A program made the position numbers and the translations under genes. Below, piece by piece: positions 4,488-24,648 of a stretch of 64,000 bases of DNA (its first letter is position 1; each line of letters opens with the position of its first letter). This DNA is from Candidatus Poribacteria bacterium. Its GTDB lineage: Bacteria; Poribacteria; WGA-4E; WGA-3G. Below the pieces are notes generated by a model. The model made no database searches, had not been told where the DNA came from, and was given only the letters and a program-made list of their open reading frames with translations. Where the stretch lies: the NCBI GenBank assembly GCA_965197475.1, contig CBDANF010000002.1:768001-832000 (forward strand), given 5' to 3'.

Positions 4488-5768
4488 TTAAAACCGATAT
4501 GCTCCTGATACGAAAACTCGATGTGTATTCCGCTTCGTTGTTAGATCGTTACTATGCTGCTGCCAATTGCCCCACATATACGCAAGATCAAATTTCACGG
4601 AATCCTCAAAAATCTTTCCTACACCGAACGTCAAAAAATCACGCTCATTCTCAATCTCGGTTTCTGTAAACGGAATTGTATCGCGGAAATACCCCAGACG
4701 TAGATATGAATTAATCACTGGTATCCGAAATTCAGCACCTAACCTCGTCTGTAAAGTTGTAGTATAGAGTTCCTCAAAGTTATTCTTTGAAATGTCATCT
4801 GCGGGTGCCGGATTATAACGTGTCTGCCGCCAATCCGTAAACTGAATATCACCTGCCAAGACCAACTGTTTATTCAACAGTTTAACGGCAATTCCTGTTC
4901 CGATCTCAAAAGGTCTCTCAATATGAAATGACTGTGCTTCACTCTCTGGATCGGACACTTCTTCTCCATCATCGTACAATATCTCAGTATACTCACGCCA
5001 CCACTCTTCAACTGCTAATTCTGTTGGGGCTACCAATGTTACCCCAAGACTGATCTCATCTGTAAAGTTTGCCAAAACCCCGAGTCTACCACCTACACCT
5101 GAATAGTCCCGGTCAATTTCGTCGTCAAATTTGAAACGTGATAAATCGCCATCTACATTCAACGCATCAGTAGCCGTCACATCCAATTCTTTAAGACTGT
5201 TACCACTCCAGAAATCCACTGAACCGCCAATCAGGAAGTTCTTAGAAATATACACACTTCCGCCAAAACTCCAAATCCCAATGCCACCTGAATTTATGTT
5301 GGTTTCATCAACAAGAAATCCACTGAAAACGTTGCCGGAACTCGGGTCAATTCCTTGAATTGCAGTCTGATAATCAAAGTTTTGCGGACGGTTATAACCG
5401 AATGCTACCGCAAATCCACCCTGTCGGGTGTAGAACGGATAAACAAAACCTATTGAATTCGGACGTAACCGAGAACGACTCGTACCGATTACCTCATCGT
5501 TACTGAAAAAACTATCCGTGTTTGCAATATTATGCGAAAAACTCGTGAAGAATTCAAACTTCTGTATCTGCGCCATTCCAGCAGGATTCCAATATAACGC
5601 GGTGAAATCATCAGCGAGCCCAAGAGAAGCACCGCCCATACCCATCGCCCGCGCACCTACACCAAACGTGTTACCGATAATTATCTCCTCATTTTGTGCG
5701 ACACACACAACTGCCACCAAACCTGTGACAAGTAGACAGACAAATACGCCAAAAATTGTTCGTTTCAC
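4488..5768 (-). CDS. OmpP1/FadL-type outer-membrane beta-barrel transporter
   Basis: GARAMGMGGA..ADD..ALYWNPAG motif, signal peptide, C-terminal YRF. Probable GTG start at 5768 behind AGGAG (ORF track starts at 5819). Confidence 0.85.
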   Translation of the reverse strand: MKRTIFGVFVCLLVTGLVAVVCVAQNEEIIIGNTFGVGARAMGMGGASLGLADDFTALYWNPAGMAQIQKFEFFTSFSHNIANTDSFFSNDEVIGTSRSRLRPNSIGFVYPFYTRQGGFAVAFGYNRPQNFDYQTAIQGIDPSSGNVFSGFLVDETNINSGGIGIWSFGGSVYISKNFLIGGSVDFWSGNSLKELDVTATDALNVDGDLSRFKFDDEIDRDYSGVGGRLGVLANFTDEISLGVTLVAPTELAVEEWWREYTEILYDDGEEVSDPESEAQSFHIERPFEIGTGIAVKLLNKQLVLAGDIQFTDWRQTRYNPAPADDISKNNFEELYTTTLQTRLGAEFRIPVINSYLRLGYFRDTIPFTETEIENERDFLTFGVGKIFEDSVKFDLAYMWGNWQQHSNDLTTKRNTHRVFVSGAYRF

Positions 5769-17074: not shown

Positions 17075-18721
17075 CTAAATTGTTTCATCAGAAATCTCAG
17101 CATCTTTTGCGAAGTCACTGAGCAATGCAGGTGTAGCAGTATCAAACCCGACAAAATCCAGCATACCAGCATCTTTCGGATCAGCAATCGAAAAGTTGTT
17201 CGCCACCATCGCAACAACGGCACACTTTGCGGGTCTTCCCATCTCTTGCCGATACATATCCAGTGCTGTTTTCGGGTGGATATCACCATACCATGTTTCG
17301 CTATCTGTGTAGATCGTGAACATGTCTACTTCTAATTTATGTTGCATTGCGTAAAGCATGGGCAGCGCGCAATCGGTACGAGAGAACGGTAAACCAGAAA
17401 CTTTTTCAATAGCACTTGCTAAACTATCGGTTGCCGTAATAGGCACGTGTACAAAATCGCCTGAAAATCCGAAGATATGGTAACTCGGTTCCGTGCGGGC
17501 GGTTACCAGTGCCATTGCAGCAGAAGCATTACGCGGTGTAAGCCCTTCACAACCAGCAACTGTACTTCTTGTCATTGACCCGGAAACATCAAGTGCCAAA
17601 AAAGTGTTCTTTTCACTCGGTTCAACGTTATCAAACGCCATGTAAAACGCAGCGTCTAAAACATCAACAATCTGCGGAACAGGCTCCCAGCTCAAACTGC
17701 CTCTGACTCCAGTGCCTGACCTATATGTTGTTAATGCCATAAGAATCTGGATAGGATGGATCCGCGAATGCTGAATAGCATCTGCCGAGAATCTTTCCAG
17801 TACAGTCTGGACCTCCGGCACAAAAGGTTTTAGCAACCCTACCTGTGTCATCTTACCGAGGTTTCGCACCGTTGCCATCACAGGCATGTTAACTAATAAC
17901 GCTGCCCAGACATCAGGATCATCCTTCCATTCATTTGGTACCATTTCATGCGTAAATTGATATGTTTCAATTAGATTGATGACCTCCGCACGTTTCTGAG
18001 TGTTTTTCAGTTCTTCATATCCAGCAAGCAGTTCAGGCAAAGCGTCCGTTGCATCGTAAGCGGTAGAGACCTTTTCTCCTTCTTCTAAACTGCGTTGCAC
18101 AGTACGCGCTTCAGTATCAAGTCCTTTGATCCAGCGATAGATACCTCGGTTTTCACCGTAGTGGCATTTCGCGAGCACGTCAGCATGCCGCCAACTGTTC
18201 CGAGACTGATATTTCAACACTTGATACGCCAATGCGTCATCATCCTTCGTGCGATACCACTCTCCGATTAACCGCCGTAATGCCCTACCCCATCCTCGCA
18301 TACCGTCCACAAACACCACGAAATTGAACAAGTGCGTTCCGATACGCGCGACATCACAGAACACCTCCTGGACTTTTCGTCTTGTAGCAACATCTCCGTG
18401 GGTAAAAGCGAGTGCTAAAGCGTATAAAGCCGGATCATTTTTCGAGGCACGCCCAGAAACTGAAATCTCACGAATCCGTTCAACAACCTGAACACCATCC
18501 TCGGCAATGCACTGCTTAACGGAATCTACATTTTCCTTTGTCAAATCTTGCTCTTTGGCATAATAGGATCCGCCTTCGGTACCTAAAATCAGAAACCTGT
18601 CAAGGTTTGTCCAGATAGAAACAGGATAAACGTATCCGCCAGCAGAATTCTCAACCTGCTGTTCGTCCAAAGGTTGGCGTTGGTGTGGATGCAATGGGGA
18701 ATATTTACGTAAATAACTCAT
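17075..18721 (-). CDS. rsr: Ro60/TROVE-domain RNA-binding protein (Rsr ortholog)
   Basis: QVENSAGGY, LDRFLILGTEGGSYY, RGWGR, KYQSR, VRNLGKM; vWA MIDAS DVSGSM; TDSET; GMLDFVGFD. True start ATG 18721 (GGTG RBS); the 28-codon extension in the ORF track overlaps a Y RNA. Confidence 0.96.
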   Translation of the reverse strand: MSYLRKYSPLHPHQRQPLDEQQVENSAGGYVYPVSIWTNLDRFLILGTEGGSYYAKEQDLTKENVDSVKQCIAEDGVQVVERIREISVSGRASKNDPALYALALAFTHGDVATRRKVQEVFCDVARIGTHLFNFVVFVDGMRGWGRALRRLIGEWYRTKDDDALAYQVLKYQSRNSWRHADVLAKCHYGENRGIYRWIKGLDTEARTVQRSLEEGEKVSTAYDATDALPELLAGYEELKNTQKRAEVINLIETYQFTHEMVPNEWKDDPDVWAALLVNMPVMATVRNLGKMTQVGLLKPFVPEVQTVLERFSADAIQHSRIHPIQILMALTTYRSGTGVRGSLSWEPVPQIVDVLDAAFYMAFDNVEPSEKNTFLALDVSGSMTRSTVAGCEGLTPRNASAAMALVTARTEPSYHIFGFSGDFVHVPITATDSLASAIEKVSGLPFSRTDCALPMLYAMQHKLEVDMFTIYTDSETWYGDIHPKTALDMYRQEMGRPAKCAVVAMVANNFSIADPKDAGMLDFVGFDTATPALLSDFAKDAEISDETI

Positions 18722-18742
18722 AATGTCACCAATTTTAATGAA

Positions 18743-18805
18743 GTGGCGGGCAAGGGGTGCATTGCGGTCACTGGGATAAAGATAACGCAATACTTCGGCC
18801 CGCAC
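18743..18805 (-). ncRNA. Minimal Y RNA (about 63 nt; Ro-binding stem only), copy 1
   Basis: 5'-GTGCGGGCCGAAGTATTGCGTTATC...CGCAATGCACCCCTTGCCCGCCAC. Terminal stem GCGGGC/GCCCGC, GNCGAAG motif, upper stem TATTGCG/CGCAATG; ends about 21 nt before rsr. Confidence 0.75.
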
Positions 18806-18812
18806 AAAGATG

Positions 18813-18951
18813 GCTCCGGATAAGGGGCAGAGTCCGTTTTGATATGCTCTACCAACTGAGCTATAGCAAGTTTATGCATCACACAAACCTACCAGCAGGA
18901 CTTGAACCTGCGACCACATCATTATGATAACACACTCAATCGACCCGGAGC
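18813..18951 (-). ncRNA. YrlA-type Y RNA (circularly permuted tRNA mimic), copy 1
   Basis: Terminal stem GCTCCGGGT-C-GA / TT-ATCCGGAGC with a bulged C; then T-arm GCAGG-TTCAAGT-CCTGC, closed acceptor-like stem TGGTAGGTTTGTG/CATAAACTTGCTA, then D-arm TA-GCTC-AGTTGGTA-GAGC. Confidence 0.9.
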
Positions 18952-18970
18952 AGTGATGGATTATCTATAA

Positions 18971-19206
18971 TAGGGCTTACGCAATTTTTCGCGTTTTTTC
19001 AAAATTATGACTAAAATGGTGCAATTTCAGCAGAATTCTGAGTTCGTAGCGCGCTTACATGAAGATTAATTTATTATTTCGGTAATTCTAATTATCCCAA
19101 ACCCTGTAGGCGCGCTTTGTAAGCGCGCCTAACTTCTCAGCAGAAATTACCGAATTTATTTTTTAATCTTCATCAAAGCGCGCCTACGGGTTTTGCGTAA
19201 GTCCTG
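18971..19206. mobile_element. 121-bp MITE carrying a nested 115-bp MITE (19059-19173) and two REPs
   Basis: Outer TIRs TAGGGCTTACGCA and TGCGTAAGTCCTG; inner about 31-bp TIRs ATGAAGATTAA..TTCGGTAATT; 236 minus 115 = 121 bp. Confidence 0.75.
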
Positions 19207-19324
19207 TTAAGAAAAAAATTGCTGCATTTCTCTTGTGGGAGGGCTTTGTCCGCCCGATTTTGTTAAATTCAACCCGTTAAACCGGGGTTGAAAACCCGCT
19301 GAATACCATACGCGCATTCGGAGT

Positions 19325-19356
19325 TAGGTTGGGTTTCGCATGCGAAACCCAACCTA
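19325..19356. repeat. Perfect 32-bp palindrome (REP-like, GTAGGTTGGG family)
   Basis: TAGGTTGGGTTTCGCA|TGCGAAACCCAACCTA; related half-sites near 10547-10575, 21455, 24645 and 54461. Confidence 0.85.
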
Positions 19357-19361
19357 TAGAA

Positions 19362-20018
19362 CTACTCAGACTTGCGTTCTAAAGCAATTTTCTGATTAGC
19401 TTCGGATAATGTTAACGCATCTCCTTCAAGACTCCACGTGTATTCAGTACCCTCTTTAAACAGAGCACCCGAAACCGTTGGACTAAACCCTTTTTTGGTT
19501 TCTTCTGCCATATCGTTTTGCAATTGCTCTACTGTGTTGCCTTGAATTTGTTGTTCCCAAACCTCTTTTGGTTCAAGTGTTACAACCACATCTACGTTCA
19601 AATCATGATTCGTAATTGTCAAGGTTGAATCATCTGCGGTATACGTCCCTTCTGATGCGATTGTAATCTCCTGCGTCATTGAAGAAACAGGTTCAGTATA
19701 TTTCTCGGTGAGTATGAACCCCAAAGCACCTGTAAACGAACCGTCGGCATTGAAAACCCAACTGTTTGCACCTAGCATGAATTCCGTTTCAAATTCTGGT
19801 GCTGGATCCTGTGGTTTGAAAAGGTCTTCAAACATTGCACCGTTGATAGTTGCAACCTGCCAAGTCGTGTCAACGAAGTCGAACATAACTTCATCAGGAT
19901 CATCTTTATCAGGATCATCTTTATCAGGATCATCCTCTTTATCAGCACCGCAACCGATGAGGGAAACAAAGAACAGTGCTGTAGCAAAAATAAGCATAAG
20001 CTTAAAAATCGGTTTCAT
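19362..20018 (-). CDS. Acidic lipoprotein, lipocalin/META-like beta fold
   Basis: Start MKPIFK at 20018 (AAGGA); lipobox LIGC; 15-bp tandem repeat at 19893-19934 encoding DDPDK repeats; TTWQV..ING motif. Confidence 0.75.
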   Translation of the reverse strand: MKPIFKLMLIFATALFFVSLIGCGADKEDDPDKDDPDKDDPDEVMFDFVDTTWQVATINGAMFEDLFKPQDPAPEFETEFMLGANSWVFNADGSFTGALGFILTEKYTEPVSSMTQEITIASEGTYTADDSTLTITNHDLNVDVVVTLEPKEVWEQQIQGNTVEQLQNDMAEETKKGFSPTVSGALFKEGTEYTWSLEGDALTLSEANQKIALERKSE

Positions 20019-20074
20019 AACGAAATCCTTTCCAATAAATTTGGATTTAGAAAAATTGAATGATATTGTATCAT

Positions 20075-21021
20075 GAGGGTATTGGTTAAATAATGATGCG
20101 GTAATTAGTGGGTACCCTCTGAACCACTCTGCATCACATTTCAATTAGAGTAGAGTTAATGATAACACTTATGACAAAAATTGTCAATCAAAATCAAACT
20201 AATAAACTGATTTTGATTGACAGATGTATCTAAAACCTATATCCTTATTGAAAACAAACTCGCTGCTCTATAGAGGACACCATGAAGAATTGCCCAAGAT
20301 GTCAACACACTCACTTCGTCAAAAACGGGTTCGTCAAAACTAAACAACGCTATAAATGCAAAAACTGCGGTTATCAATGGACGCGCACAACACCCCGGGG
20401 GAAACCACAAGCACAGAAAACTCTCGCCGTTCTCTTATATTGCCACGGCATCTCAATGAATGCTATCTCAAAACTTGTCGGATGCCACGTAACAACTGTG
20501 CTTCAATGGATACGCACCTTTGCTAAAAAACAGGCACCGAAACAAACACTCACACCCGGCACCACCGCCTGCTTGGAACTTGATGAGATGTGGCACTATA
20601 TTGGGAACAAGAAAAACAAACTCTGGATATGGAAGGCACTTGACAGAAACACAGGATACCTCATTGACTGGGAATGTGGTGGGCGTGATAAACAAACCCT
20701 TGAAAAACTCACGGCAAGGCTCTCAACCCTCAATGCTAAGATATATTACACAGACAAATGGCAGGTCTATGAGTCGGTCCTACCTGCCGTAAAACATGTT
20801 CAGGATAAAGCGGAGACGCATCGCATTGAACGCAACAATGGTCGGATGCGCCACTGGTTCGGACGCTTCAAGCGCAAGTCCATTATTGTTTCCAAAAGCA
20901 TAGAAATGGTGGATTTGACGATTGCTTTGTTCGCACGATTTCGTGTCAATGGCAACGTGTTTGACATTTTAAAACTCGACGGAATAGAAAACATGAATAT
21001 CATTATTTAACCAATACTCTC
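20075..21021 (+). mobile_element. IS1-family insertion sequence (947 bp)
   Basis: 23-bp TIRs GAGGGTATTGGTTAAATAATGAT and ATCATTATTTAACCAATACTCTC (22/23 match); no TSD visible. Confidence 0.88.
20282..21010 (+). CDS. IS1-family transposase (single ORF: zinc ribbon, HTH, DDE)
   Basis: CPRC..KNG...QRYKCKNC; ELDEMWHY; YTD.W; IERNN...RH. Confidence 0.92.
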   Translation: MKNCPRCQHTHFVKNGFVKTKQRYKCKNCGYQWTRTTPRGKPQAQKTLAVLLYCHGISMNAISKLVGCHVTTVLQWIRTFAKKQAPKQTLTPGTTACLELDEMWHYIGNKKNKLWIWKALDRNTGYLIDWECGGRDKQTLEKLTARLSTLNAKIYYTDKWQVYESVLPAVKHVQDKAETHRIERNNGRMRHWFGRFKRKSIIVSKSIEMVDLTIALFARFRVNGNVFDILKLDGIENMNIII

Positions 21022-21082
21022 CTTAATTTTTACAAACAACAATTTAATCTGTTGCGTAAGTCGAGTTTAATTTTCACATAGC

Positions 21083-21160
21083 AGCAGGCAAGGCATGTAT
21101 TACATAGGCGCATATTACTGCGACACTAACGTGAATGGTAAAGTAATACTTCGGCCCGCT
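21083..21160 (-). ncRNA. Minimal Y RNA (about 78 nt), copy 2
   Basis: 5'-AGCGGGCCGAAGTATTAC...GTAATACATGCCTTGCCTGCT. Shares GCGGGCCGAAGTATT and CCTTGCC with copy 1, and the upper stem covaries (TATTAC/GTAATA versus TATTGC/GCAATG). Confidence 0.72.
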
Positions 21161-21167
21161 AAAGACT

Positions 21168-21289
21168 ACTCTGGATAAGAATTGGAATACAAGCTCTACC
21201 GCTGAGCTACAGCAAGGTTTCGCATTACACCCGACCTGCTGGCAGGAGTCGAACCTGCGACCCGATAACGCATTCACACGATCCAGAGT
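21168..21289 (-). ncRNA. YrlA-type Y RNA (circularly permuted tRNA mimic), copy 2
   Basis: Terminal stem ACTCTGGAT/ATCCAGAGT; T-arm GCAGG-TTCGACT-CCTGC; acceptor-like stem CAGCAGG/CCTTGCTG; D-arm TA-GCTC-AGCGGTA-GAGC. Confidence 0.88.
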
Positions 21290-21309
21290 TAAGTTTGTTA
21301 CGACTAAAA

Positions 21310-21354
21310 TGGCTGCTTCTGTCGGAATTGAACCGACTTTAGCAAAGTATGCCC
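21310..21354 (-). other. tRNA 3'-half-like element ending in GCCA
   Basis: ...ACT-TTGCTAA-A-GTCGG-TTCAATT-CCGAC-AGAAGCA-G-CCA; no matching 5' acceptor strand or D-arm found. Confidence 0.6.
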
Positions 21355-21373
21355 ATTTCGCAAATAGTGATAT

Positions 21374-21403
21374 ATTATATCATGTTCATGGACATGCTGT
21401 CAA
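21374..21403 (-). promoter_or_regulatory. sigma70 promoter for the tRNA-half/Y RNA array, with a palindrome in the spacer
   Basis: TTGACA-N18-TATAAT with extended -10 (TGnTATAAT); CATGTTCATGGACATG near-palindrome at 21381-21396. Confidence 0.75.
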
Positions 21404-21464: not shown

Positions 21465-21982
21465 TACGTGGTGCCACCGATTTGATCTAATTTTCTCAGA
21501 CAACCAAGCCCATCCTAATTGTATTGGGCACGATTCCAGCCACCAACGTAGACTTTACCACTGTGGACATAGATACATAAACCTCGCGTACCCCCACCTT
21601 CTTGAAATATCACCTGCTTCTGATTTTTACTGATGTCACTACACTTGAGAAATGCTGCCACAGTTCGGTTAGTATACGGCCCCTGTGTTGATATGGGGGG
21701 AATCAGGAATATTTACAGCATCGTTTTGGCCATCAAACTGCAATGCCTTGTCAACGATACCTTTAATGGATTTAGGATTTCCAACAAAATTACCATTTAA
21801 TCCGTTTCTTGAGGTGTCTTTGGCACTTCCATCATCAAAAATCCAGTTTCCAGCAACCGTTGTTTCGTCGCTTTGCGCTTCCACCCGCATAGTGGGTAAA
21901 AAAGTAAATGCCAACAAAATAATGCATAATAATGGTAGTACGGGAACTTGTGAAGTGTATCTTTGCTCAATGCTTGAATCAT
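21465..21982 (-). pseudogene. Frameshifted and truncated LamG-like gene
   Basis: GGAG RBS and ATG 21982; segments in different frames (signal peptide...NWIFDDG...ALQFDG; GPYTNRTV...QVIFQEGG; RWHHV); internal TAG; ends at a REP. Confidence 0.75.
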
Positions 21983-22132
21983 TACTAATCTCCTTTGGAA
22001 TTTCTACTTCCTGTGTTCCGGAGGCTATTTTCTTGAGACAGATATCCTTAAAGTATTAGGTATTATGCCAAATTATGCCAAATTAGCGAAATTTAATCAA
22101 TTGATTGTTTTCGTTCGGCAAATTAATCTTAC

Positions 22133-22161
22133 TTGACAAAAAAACGGATATCCGTTATACT
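22133..22161 (+). promoter_or_regulatory. sigma70 promoter of the helicase operon with a perfect 14-bp palindrome
   Basis: TTGACA-N17-TATACT; AACGGATATCCGTT at 22143-22156. Confidence 0.72.
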
Positions 22162-22194
22162 AACATTATAGGATTTCTCAGTATAGGGGGATTG

Positions 22195-24648
22195 ATGCGA
22201 TATAAAGGCTTAGCGTTAGATCGGTTTCAAAAGGAAGCAATTGAAGCGATTAATCTTGAAAACTCAGTAATTGTTACAGCCCCCACGGGTGCCGGAAAAA
22301 CCGTGATTGCTGAATATGCTGTTGAAAAATGCCTCCAGACAAACAAACGCGTTATCTATACCGCACCGATTAAAGCCCTTAGCAATCAAAAATATAGAGA
22401 TTTTCAATCCGAAAATGGTGATAAAATCGGGATTGTCACTGGCGATGTGGTCTTAAATCCTTATGCACAGGTACTATTGATGACCACCGAGATCTTCCGA
22501 AATACAATCTTTGATGATATAGAAAGACTACAAGATGTTTCTTATGTCGTCTTTGACGAAATCCACTATATCAACGATATTGAACGCGGTACTGTCTGGG
22601 AAGAAAGCATCATCTTTGCACCGCAACATATCAAATTTGTCTGTCTAAGTGCAACAATTCCGAATATTAGCTCATTTGCAGAATGGATGCAAAGTGTCCG
22701 AGAAATTGACCTCAAAATTGTTGAAGAGTTAGAAAGACCTGTGCCGTTAGAACATCACATCTATTTCCCAGGCTTTGGAATAGGTAAATTGGAACATCTT
22801 AATAATCTTCAACAAAAAACAAAGCGGCAAACACGAAATAAGGATAAAACAAAAAGGAAATACAATAAATTATCAGATCAAAAGCGGCAAGAAGATACGA
22901 ATGACGGCACCCCTACTAAACCGAAAGGCATAATAGATACCAAACTAATTCCTTACCTCAACGAAAACAAACGTCTCCCATGTCTCTATTTCTGTTTCAG
23001 TCGAAAAAGATGTGAAAGCAACGCCCATTATCATGCATCTTCAGGACAACACGAATTACTTGACACAGAGAAACAGGAACAGATTTTAGAGAAATTTGAC
23101 GCGCTTTGTATTCAATTTGATATTGTTGAAGAGAAAGTAATTACAGATTTTCGTCAATTAATCGCTTGTGGCATAGCCTATCATCACGCGGGCATGCTCC
23201 CTACACTTAAAGAAGTTGTTGAACGTTTGTTTACTTCAGGATTAATTCAACTCCTATTTACTACTGAGACGTTCGCAGTCGGAATCAACATGCCTGCATG
23301 TACAGTCGTGTTTGATAGCCTTGAAAAATTTGACGGTGTCGGTTTCCGTTATCTTAAGGCACGGGAATATCACCAGATGGCGGGGCGAGCAGGTAGACGC
23401 GGGATTGATACCGTAGGCTATGTGTACGCTCAAGTTGATCCGGAATATGCAATACATGACGATGTTAGCAGAACTATTTCCAACACCATTGAACCGATCA
23501 CCAGCCAGTTCAACCTCTCATATTCCAGTATACTCAATCTATATGAGAAATATGGCGATGACATTTACGATGTCTACACAATGAGTTTGAGCAACCACCA
23601 GAATTATAAGCGTATTGCTGATCTCAACAAACAGATTACCCTTCTTGATGAAAAACGTGAATCTCTACCCCTTCCCATCTGTATCCACGACAATATTGAG
23701 GGTATGAAACAGATTGAGAGTTATTACCGACTTAAGCGGGCAAATGGAAAGGAGCATGAAAGATTACAGTTGGAATTAGCGTCTCTCAAATCTCGGATCT
23801 CACGAGGAAAATCGAAAAATAAGGAACAAAAGAAAAAGTTGACACCGATTTACAATCAGATGAAAAATCTTGATCGGCAACTCTCAAAAAATCTTTGCCA
23901 TGGGTGCCACGAACGAAAGCAATGCACCAATAGATATCAGGCAATTCGTAAACAGGAACAGTATATTCAAAATATAAAGCAAAAACAGACACACATTAAG
24001 AGTTATCAGCAAGATCAGATAACGGCTCGTCTTAGCGTGCTTGAGGCACTTGGGTATATTGAAGGGCAGACACTCCTCCCGCGTGGAAACACTGCCTCAC
24101 ATATCTATGGATACGAACTCCAACTGACTCAACTGCTCTTTAGAGGGTTTTTTGAACGGTTGACTGAGGATGAAATCAACTGTCTCATGGTAGCAATTGT
24201 GTCTGAACCTCGTAAAGACGGCTATTTTAAAAAAGTAAAGGATAAAAGATTACTATCTATTCTGGGCGCGGCTTGGGACGAAATTTTAGACATCCAAAGA
24301 GTAGAAAACCAACTTAATGTATCCGAAATTATACCAATGTTAGAACTTCGTTTGTGCTCCGCGATGCTTGCTTGGAGCCGTGGTTGTGAATTTGATAAGT
24401 TGACTGAATACGCAGCACTTGATCCGGGAGATTTTGTCAGAACCTTCCGGCTTGTGATTGACCAACTTCGTCAAATCCGGCGCACCATGGCAGGACACAC
24501 TGCTCTCACAGATAAACTGAATCGTTGTATCGGTAAAATTAATCGTGATGTTGTTGATGCTGAACGCCAACTGCGAATCGGACAGGAAGAACCGTTTGAA
24601 GAGGAAGAGGACACAGTAAACACTGCTCCACGTGAGTATAGTCCGTAG
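22195..24648 (+). CDS. Ski2/Mtr4-like (HelY-type) DExH RNA helicase
   Basis: APTGAGKT, TAPIKALSNQK, DEIH, LSAT, HHAGMLP, TETFAVGINMP, QMAGRAGRRG, DSHCT-like C-terminus (GDFVR..R..D.L.Q); start ATG 22195. Confidence 0.93.
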   Translation: MRYKGLALDRFQKEAIEAINLENSVIVTAPTGAGKTVIAEYAVEKCLQTNKRVIYTAPIKALSNQKYRDFQSENGDKIGIVTGDVVLNPYAQVLLMTTEIFRNTIFDDIERLQDVSYVVFDEIHYINDIERGTVWEESIIFAPQHIKFVCLSATIPNISSFAEWMQSVREIDLKIVEELERPVPLEHHIYFPGFGIGKLEHLNNLQQKTKRQTRNKDKTKRKYNKLSDQKRQEDTNDGTPTKPKGIIDTKLIPYLNENKRLPCLYFCFSRKRCESNAHYHASSGQHELLDTEKQEQILEKFDALCIQFDIVEEKVITDFRQLIACGIAYHHAGMLPTLKEVVERLFTSGLIQLLFTTETFAVGINMPACTVVFDSLEKFDGVGFRYLKAREYHQMAGRAGRRGIDTVGYVYAQVDPEYAIHDDVSRTISNTIEPITSQFNLSYSSILNLYEKYGDDIYDVYTMSLSNHQNYKRIADLNKQITLLDEKRESLPLPICIHDNIEGMKQIESYYRLKRANGKEHERLQLELASLKSRISRGKSKNKEQKKKLTPIYNQMKNLDRQLSKNLCHGCHERKQCTNRYQAIRKQEQYIQNIKQKQTHIKSYQQDQITARLSVLEALGYIEGQTLLPRGNTASHIYGYELQLTQLLFRGFFERLTEDEINCLMVAIVSEPRKDGYFKKVKDKRLLSILGAAWDEILDIQRVENQLNVSEIIPMLELRLCSAMLAWSRGCEFDKLTEYAALDPGDFVRTFRLVIDQLRQIRRTMAGHTALTDKLNRCIGKINRDVVDAERQLRIGQEEPFEEEEDTVNTAPREYSP

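Follow-up and report, generated by a model that had tools for sequence, protein, structure and literature searches.

A Candidatus Poribacteria rsr locus with two pairs of Y RNA genes split by a strain-specific insert

In Mycobacterium smegmatis, the Y RNAs YrlA and YrlB are encoded upstream of rsr, the gene for the Ro60 orthologue Rsr, and arise by the processing of a single precursor (Chen et al., 2014, RNA 20:1715, PMC4201824). In Deinococcus radiodurans, Yrn2 and Yrn1 come from a polycistronic precursor upstream of rsr that also contains a tRNA (PMC4201824), and Ro60 is tethered to PNPase by a Y RNA in Deinococcus (Wang et al., 2018, bioRxiv 10.1101/312249), as it is in Salmonella. The survey of Chen et al. 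(2014; PMC4201824) counted 355 YrlAs in 276 genomes (254 bacteria and 22 phages), listing all YrlA-like matches located no more than 4 kb from rsr, and proposed the motif GNCGAAN0-1G near the 5′ end as the Ro60 contact. Parts 1 and 2 of the five parts of its Table S1 list many species with two YrlA-like genes, five with three, and Neisseria elongata with four; Eikenella corrodens CC92I, Calothrix PCC 7507, Mucilaginibacter paludis and Chryseobacterium indologenes are examples with three. We analysed a window of 64,000 nt from a Candidatus Poribacteria bacterium (assembly GCA_965197475.1, contig CBDANF010000002.1, positions 768,001 to 832,000) that carries rsr behind an array of four Y RNA genes. 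All positions below are those of the window, and the array and rsr lie on the minus strand unless stated otherwise.

In the direction of transcription the locus consists of a promoter, a tRNA 3′-half relic, a YrlA-like gene, a gene for a hairpin Y RNA, an insert of ~2.1 kb, a second YrlA-like gene, a second hairpin gene and, after 22 nt, the rsr ATG. We consider it highly probable (about 0.85) that this is an rsr locus whose four Y RNA genes belong to the rsr transcription unit. As in M. smegmatis, the strand that encodes rsr carries, upstream of it, first a tRNA-mimic and then a small Y RNA; unlike in M. smegmatis, the YrlA/hairpin unit is present twice with diverged types, the hairpin has no T-arm, and the array is split. 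With the Salmonella Typhimurium rsr-yrlBA-rtcBA locus it shares the combination of a Ro60-docking stem with a permuted T-arm/acceptor-like/D-arm domain (Wang et al., 2018), and the presence of another Y RNA, a hairpin whose loop is rich in pyrimidines. It differs from Salmonella in that the RNAs are placed upstream and not downstream of rsr, that the promoter is of the sigma-70 type, and that no rtcB was found in the genome; the Salmonella rsr operon is controlled by RtcR and sigma-54. Unlike the YrlAs of Salmonella and of the Rfam family RF02553, both YrlA-like copies of the window score below 69 bits and lack the full GNCGAAN0-1G. The multi-copy loci of Table S1 likewise place several YrlA-like genes on the strand of rsr and no more than 4 kb from it, whereas that table covers only the tRNA-like YrlAs, not hairpins, and includes no Poribacteria in parts 1 and 2 of 5. 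Like D. radiodurans with its polycistronic Yrn1/Yrn2 precursor, the locus has at least two Y RNAs upstream of rsr, but its leader holds a tRNA 3′-half relic in place of an intact tRNA.

Our literature search found no paper combining Poribacteria and Ro60. The first-pass annotation of this DNA had taken the four-RNA array to be novel unless such arrays were already catalogued, and Table S1 of Chen et al. (2014; PMC4201824), with its two-, three- and four-YrlA loci, removes that novelty: both the layout YrlA, YrlB, rsr and loci with two to four YrlA-like genes in an array have been in print since 2014. What is new here is the phylum, hairpin Y RNAs that are invisible to Rfam, the shuffling of module types, and a split allele that coexists with an intact one.

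The rsr gene and its four Y RNAs

The rsr open reading frame spans 17075-18805 from a GTG, and homologues support the ATG at 18721 as the start instead, which places rsr at 17075-18721 and gives a product of 548 aa. Pfam detected a TROVE domain (1.1e-32, residues 23-330) followed by vWA_Ro60 (4.6e-61, residues 374-538), the succession of a TROVE HEAT-repeat ring and a vWA domain found in Ro60/Rsr. With this protein we found related loci in 26 Candidatus Poribacteria and three distant outgroups (29 in all); identity with the 26 Poribacteria orthologues is 72-88% and extends from residue 1. The reading frame is unbroken, rsr is the single TROVE gene of the 5.7-Mb genome, and the genome also encodes PNPase. 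Judged by its domains and orthologues, the predicted protein is Ro60/Rsr.

The two tRNA mimics are a type A copy of 122 nt at 21168-21289, distal to rsr, and a type B copy of 139 nt at 18813-18951, proximal to it. They lie 2446 nt and 91 nt upstream of the rsr ATG, respectively, on its strand and hence within the 4 kb that characterises YrlAs. Searched with the Rfam YrlA model RF02553, the distal copy matched the full model at 21166-21288 with 41.2 bits (E 5e-7 when 2.9 kb were searched and 5.6e-8 for 326 nt), and the alignment spans all helices; the proximal copy matched at 18840-18919 through the tRNA-like core only, with 28.4 bits (E 0.0024 for 2.9 kb and 0.00019 in the short search). Both matches are below the gathering score. 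We also built covariance models from alignments of orthologues drawn from the window and the related loci, one of 40 YrlA-like sequences (model R1) and one of 37 hairpin sequences (model R2). R1 gave 126.9 bits for the distal and 112.9 bits for the proximal copy, and these were its only strong matches genome-wide. Weak R1 matches of 25-30 bits elsewhere in the genome fell at or near true tRNA genes; tRNA genes are a class of false positives that Chen et al. (2014; PMC4201824) also excluded.

The 40 YrlA-like copies, which are orthologous or paralogous to one another, share an RNAalifold consensus in which the two termini pair as a docking stem; within it, T arm, acceptor-like stem and D arm succeed one another, the permuted order of YrlA. 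The alignment further displays the tRNA-like T-loop, a D-loop with GG, UA between the acceptor-like and D stems, and a junction of zero nt between the T arm and the acceptor-like stem; the acceptor-like stems have at least 7 bp. Standard pairs fill 97.7% of the paired cells, compared with 33-52% when the 3′ partners were slid by 1-3 columns. Double-sided changes occur in 14 of 35 pairs, a number reached by none of 500 shuffles, and 7 of the 8 acceptor-like pairs covary. Type A, to which 25 of the 40 copies including the distal one belong, has the terminal stem ACTCTGG/CCAGAGT and a length of 122-132 nt. Type B (15 of 40, including the proximal copy) has the terminal stem GCTCCGG/CCGGAGC, a length of 134-141 nt, a longer acceptor-like stem and, ahead of the T arm, a small additional V-like hairpin. 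The two paralogues differ in a compensatory manner at pairs 1/158, 5/154 and 17/138 and in the acceptor-like stem; such changes in the terminal and acceptor-like stems had been noticed at first reading of the sequence, and the pair counts on 40 copies establish them as real. The proximal copy also folds more stably than its shuffles (z -3.96).

The hairpin Y RNAs comprise a short, YrlB-like type at 18744-18804, whose 3′ end is separated by 22 nt from the rsr ATG, and a long type of 79 nt at 21082-21160. They score 71.2 and 58.6 bits with R2, the latter within the 54.5-64.7 bits of orthologous long-type hairpins, and are the sole R2 matches in the genome. The shared architecture, which we specified ourselves, is a 6-pair lower stem, one bulged C, 2 pairs and a 7-pair upper stem. 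The short hairpin displays the bulged-C lower stem, the motif GCCGAAG and a pyrimidine-rich loop, and the long one also carries GCCGAAG. Tested against this structure, 97.5% of the pair cells of the 37 copies are standard, versus 33-55% when slid; double-sided changes occur in 3 of 16 pairs, and 13 of 500 shuffles reach the same. The full GNCGAAN0-1G is present in 33 of the 37 hairpins, both window copies among them. The short hairpin is markedly stable (z -4.14, with 0 of 200 shuffles as stable). Across loci the hairpins fall into length classes of 57-64, 69-74 and 79-81 nt. Rfam, including its Y_RNA and YrlB models, returned no family at E ≤ 1 for either hairpin. A match to a nematode small-RNA family (E 0.63) was not significant and was not used. 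In structure and motif both agree with the hairpin-type Y RNAs of Chen et al. (2014), the YrlB/Yrn2 class, and on these features we file them as putative YrlB-class hairpins.

Within each pair the hairpin closely follows the YrlA-like gene. All 39 pairs examined have a gap of 6-8 nt from the 3′ end of the YrlA-like RNA (6 nt in 2 pairs, 7 in 18 and 8 in 19). An exact 7 nt had been proposed for both pairs of the window; this holds for the distal pair, but the proximal gap is 8 nt in the register of the model and depends on the start chosen for the proximal hairpin. In other respects the initial reading of the locus stood up well: Pfam, RF02553, R1 and R2 agree on a Ro60 locus with two tRNA-mimic and two small Y RNAs, and the order and coordinates of the elements, all on the minus strand, were exact or within 1-2 nt. 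Two of the checks that it had proposed, a YrlA covariance model and new models from related genomes, returned matches, with covariation in both RNA classes according to our own pair counts. From the covariation in orthologous loci, the four predicted RNAs are duplicated paralogues under structural selection, as had been suspected.

Conservation of the array and the insert that splits it

The 26 Poribacteria loci differ in array content. Two YrlA-like genes with two hairpins are present in 13, one YrlA-like gene with two hairpins in 2 (L003 and L004), one of each in 10 (weakly in L026), and a single YrlA-like gene without a hairpin in 1 (L015). In the loci with two of each, the four genes are contiguous within ~480 nt before rsr, and the spacer between the pairs is ~30 nt. 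R1 at E ≤ 1e-5 matched 37 of 151 genomes of the phylum, a sample that overlaps the 26 loci, so the counts are not independent. Of the other members of its genus, 32 of 38 were among the matches, as were both genomes (2 of 2) from a genus in another family, but none (0 of 56) from the largest sister genus. Two R1 matches of at least 90 bits occurred in 17 of 33 genomes of the genus. They lay 97-251 nt apart on one contig in 14 of these and on different contigs in 2, and only in this genome were they 2216 nt apart. The two genomes with strong matches on separate contigs (G009 and G131) may have a second locus, a split assembly or contamination.

The types are arranged A-B in most loci and B-A in L005, L011 and L019. 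A chimeric third type, which combines the terminal stem of type A and the extra hairpin of type B with a very short acceptor-like stem, is found in L001 and as the rsr-proximal copy of L011. Hairpin length classes are also combined differently between species. Because type order is swapped, chimeras exist and hairpin classes are variously combined, the Y RNA modules appear to recombine. The ancestral layout, as reconstructed from these loci, is promoter, YrlA-like gene, hairpin, ~30-nt spacer, second YrlA-like gene of the other type, second hairpin and rsr, and roughly half of the related species retain it. In this layout 20-25 nt separate the last hairpin from the rsr start, which leaves no room for a separate rsr promoter.

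The array is preceded by a sigma-70-type promoter at 21374-21403 (TTGACA-18-TATAAT with an upstream TG, a 12/12 match). Its -35 and -10 boxes align in 17 of 17 related leaders, and in several of these the promoter ends ~8-25 nt before the 5′ end of the YrlA-like gene. Between promoter and array, at 21310-21337, lies a sequence resembling a tRNA 3′ half. A perfect 5-bp T-arm-like hairpin (21337-21321; weak T-arm match, E 0.19) is followed at 21320-21310 by 7 nt, G and CCA, without a 5′ half. The first-pass annotation had called this a tRNA 3′-half, and the parts are indeed present. A tRNA gene, however, has a cloverleaf with an anticodon arm in canonical order; ARAGORN called 0 tRNA genes in the window, and none of the 48 tRNAs of the genome qualifies as the parent (best 17 of 32 positions). 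Among the 17 aligned leaders it is seen, in degenerate form, in one other (L006), the remaining ones having deletions or being leaderless. We read it as a relic that recalls the tRNA of the Deinococcus precursor, not as a conserved working part. A second short remnant, made of the 3′ end of the relic and downstream sequence, is located at 19005-19019 inside the insert. In the outgroup L027 (Solirubrobacter soli), a true tRNA-Arg at 4688-4763 lies ~240 nt upstream of rsr, a placement reminiscent of the Deinococcus Y RNA precursor with its tRNA; the weak R1 match there has 18 bits.

The insertion recognised between the pairs measures 2102 nt (18967-21068) and is strain-specific, being absent from relatives. 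It interrupts the ancestral spacer, of which an rsr-side remnant (18952-18966) and a promoter-side remnant (21069-21081) fit the spacer consensus of the relatives. We compared the locus with contigs from four sponge metatranscriptome runs of one study; such contigs may stem from contaminating DNA. In 3 of the 4 runs, contigs join 18966 to 21069 with 2 letters between, skipping the insert and reproducing the spacer consensus of the relatives. Three components make up the insert: a repeat element that is bounded by terminal inverted repeats and contains nested palindromes (18968-19209; inverted repeats I1, I3 and I6, direct repeat D7; 35 partial BLAST matches in the genome), a gene on the minus strand for a lipocalin-like lipoprotein (19362-20024; Pfam Lipocalin_4, 2.9e-5; the signal peptide carries an L-I-G-C lipobox; one copy per genome), and an IS1-family element of 947 nt on the plus strand (20075-21021) with 23-nt terminal inverted repeats (I2) and a transposase at 20282-21010 (DDE_Tnp_IS1, 2.4e-28). 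Homologues of the two proteins were found in none of the 29 related loci. Similar repeat ends are present at 21052-21067 and 19193-19209, with an inverted partner at 18968-18984. The genome holds 19 near-full-length copies of the IS1 element, three of them 99.3-100% identical to the window copy, which suggests recent activity. An IS1-less joint from 20074 to 21022, lacking exactly 947 nt, was found in one of the four runs (X2). The simplest reading is that a repeat-bounded lipoprotein cassette entered the spacer between the pairs and that IS1 was later nested within it. Insert-free and IS1-less forms thus coexist in the sponge RNA-library contigs.

Within the insert, a nested palindromic repeat at 19049-19195 has arms of 39 nt and 22 nt. 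Summed over contigs, the word depth of the bin 19105-19249 is 255-363 in each of the four RNA libraries, with many different loose ends, which indicates that the repeat is a multicopy element occurring in many contexts or organisms of the samples. As for the locus itself, rsr bins 17655-18089 are uncovered in all four runs and the Y RNA bins have a depth of 17-45, and this is no evidence of differential expression, since contig depth cannot rank genes and holes in contig cover prove nothing.

Proposed function and alternative explanations

Co-transcription, processing, Rsr binding and effector recruitment are what we infer for this locus. In the ancestral form, a single transcript starting at the conserved promoter probably covers both array and rsr, as there is no promoter room between the last hairpin and rsr. 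The four RNAs would most likely be cut from the 5′ part of the rsr transcript, as with YrlA and YrlB of M. smegmatis. Each RNA would then dock on Rsr through its bulged terminal stem, and the tRNA-like or hairpin module would be left free to recruit an effector. In the split allele, the distal pair retains the ancestral promoter, and the proximal pair and rsr would have to depend either on a promoter within the insert or on read-through. The locus had at first been described as polycistronic, a description that is not supported for this genome, where the pairs are 2.1 kb apart with an antisense IS1 element and a lipoprotein gene between them; a single precursor is likely solely because relatives keep the ancestral contiguous form.

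Several observations weigh against this proposal. At gathering thresholds Rfam has zero matches over the whole window, and both YrlA-like copies miss the gathering score of RF02553 (41.2 and 28.4 versus 69 bits). The full GNCGAAN0-1G occurs in 3 of 40 YrlA-like copies and its GNCGA part in 26 of 40; the proximal window copy has GNCGA only, the distal one neither. The RF02553 matches support their YrlA-like identity, but because gathering score and full motif both fail, we file the window RNAs as a predicted divergent YrlA-like subgroup and not as curated or textbook YrlA members. The distal YrlA-like RNA is not markedly stabler than its shuffles (z -1.99), and the long hairpin has a z of only -1.09. 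A large part of the covariation distinguishes one paralogue type from the other, so that independent events are fewer than the cell counts imply. The best promoter match for the proximal pair and rsr in this genome is no better than 9/12. The evidence on discrete RNAs of ~139, 122, 79 and 61 nt, on their ends and on their strand, consists of contigs, not reads; the contigs contain the uninterrupted and the IS1-less forms of the locus but do not show discrete species. Finally, RtcB is a frequent neighbour of rsr; none had been noticed in the window, and searches of both the window and the whole genome (92.7% complete) detected none. Because no RtcB was detected in the genome, rsr is, on present sequence, not part of an rtc RNA-repair operon in this lineage.

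The small hairpins might instead be cis-acting parts of the rsr leader, acting as processing or stabilising hairpins or as an Rsr operator, and not free Y RNAs. Their constant position 6-8 nt behind a YrlA-like gene and the 22 nt between the last hairpin and the rsr ATG would suit such a role, as would the fact that discrete hairpin transcripts are not seen in the RNA-library contigs and that no Rfam family recognises the hairpins. We nevertheless hold this to be unlikely, as the complete Ro60-contact motif is better preserved in the hairpins than in the YrlA-like RNAs (33 of 37 versus 3 of 40), and as the hairpins come in at least three length classes, recombined without regard to YrlA type, and persist as two in L003 and L004 beside one YrlA-like gene. 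Furthermore, the distal hairpin does not adjoin rsr, and the equivalent located between YrlA and rsr in M. smegmatis, YrlB, is a stable Rsr-bound RNA (Chen et al., 2014, PMC4201824). A decaying array is less likely still: all four copies score in the range of their orthologues and the rsr frame is intact, which argues against the idea that the split orphaned the distal pair, or silenced rsr and the proximal pair, and left the array partly a remnant. That idea draws on the antisense IS1 element, on a perfect 16-bp palindromic hairpin after the lipoprotein gene, on the lack of a strong promoter before the proximal pair, and on a G-to-A change in the docking stem of the distal YrlA-like RNA that is unique among the 40 copies. 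The IS1 element, however, is polymorphic and therefore recent, and two zero-mismatch RNA-library contigs (records 3 and 27) run from the insert into the proximal YrlA-like gene; contigs as such cannot prove transcription. Because the distal copies of both RNA classes score with R1 and R2 inside the range of their orthologues, the distal RNAs do not appear to be visibly decaying.

We give hardly any credence to a third explanation, in which the tRNA-like modules are rearranged tRNA pseudogenes or artefacts of tandem tRNAs that have nothing to do with Ro60. It is true that their D-arm and T-arm sequences are tRNA-like, that R1 weakly matches true tandem tRNAs (25-37 bits), and that the leader holds the tRNA 3′-half relic. 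Yet ARAGORN called no tRNA in the window and, in the 26 Poribacteria loci, none close to rsr, the sole call being ~4.8 kb upstream on the other strand in L022, and the Rfam YrlA match of the distal copy is full-length. The permuted T arm, acceptor-like stem and D arm, moreover, lie inside a covarying docking stem and are kept beside rsr in 26 of 26 loci. The reading that we prefer, Y RNA genes within the rsr transcription unit, can be extended to a joint scheme of excision from the rsr leader, an operator hairpin, recombining adaptors, maturation by RNase P and a test by allele pairs, which taken as a whole strikes us as doubtful. In this scheme the rsr-proximal hairpin may double as a Ro60 operator, with feedback on rsr translation or mRNA processing. 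The recombining modules (two to three YrlA-like types and three hairpin classes, with their order swapped between species) would give a single Ro60 several effector-specific adaptors, and the YrlA-like RNAs, with acceptor-like stems of at least 7 bp, would be matured further by RNase P. If the scheme were true, the alleles with and without the 2.1-kb insert, which coexist in the same sponge samples, would be a natural test of the dependence of rsr on the array promoter.

Neighbouring genes and implications

The rsr locus is flanked by genes for a PhyH-family dioxygenase and a xylose-isomerase-like TIM-barrel protein, which are kept in relatives. Divergently beside the array, a Ski2-like RNA helicase (DEAD, Helicase_C and DSHCT domains) is encoded at 22105-24648 on the plus strand, with a small conserved open reading frame at 21685-22059 between them. 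The helicase was considered as a conserved partner of the array and rejected, since within the flanks examined it adjoins the array in only 3 of 26 loci (L006, L009 and L019).

These findings leave the current picture of Ro60/Y RNA biology unchanged. They supply alignments with covariance support for 40 YrlA-like and for 37 hairpin Y sequences, the latter a class that standard annotation misses because Rfam cannot detect the hairpins. They also extend bacterial Y RNAs to the Candidatus Poribacteria, uncultivated symbionts of sponges, and suggest that in this lineage a mobile insertion can uncouple rsr from the promoter of its array.

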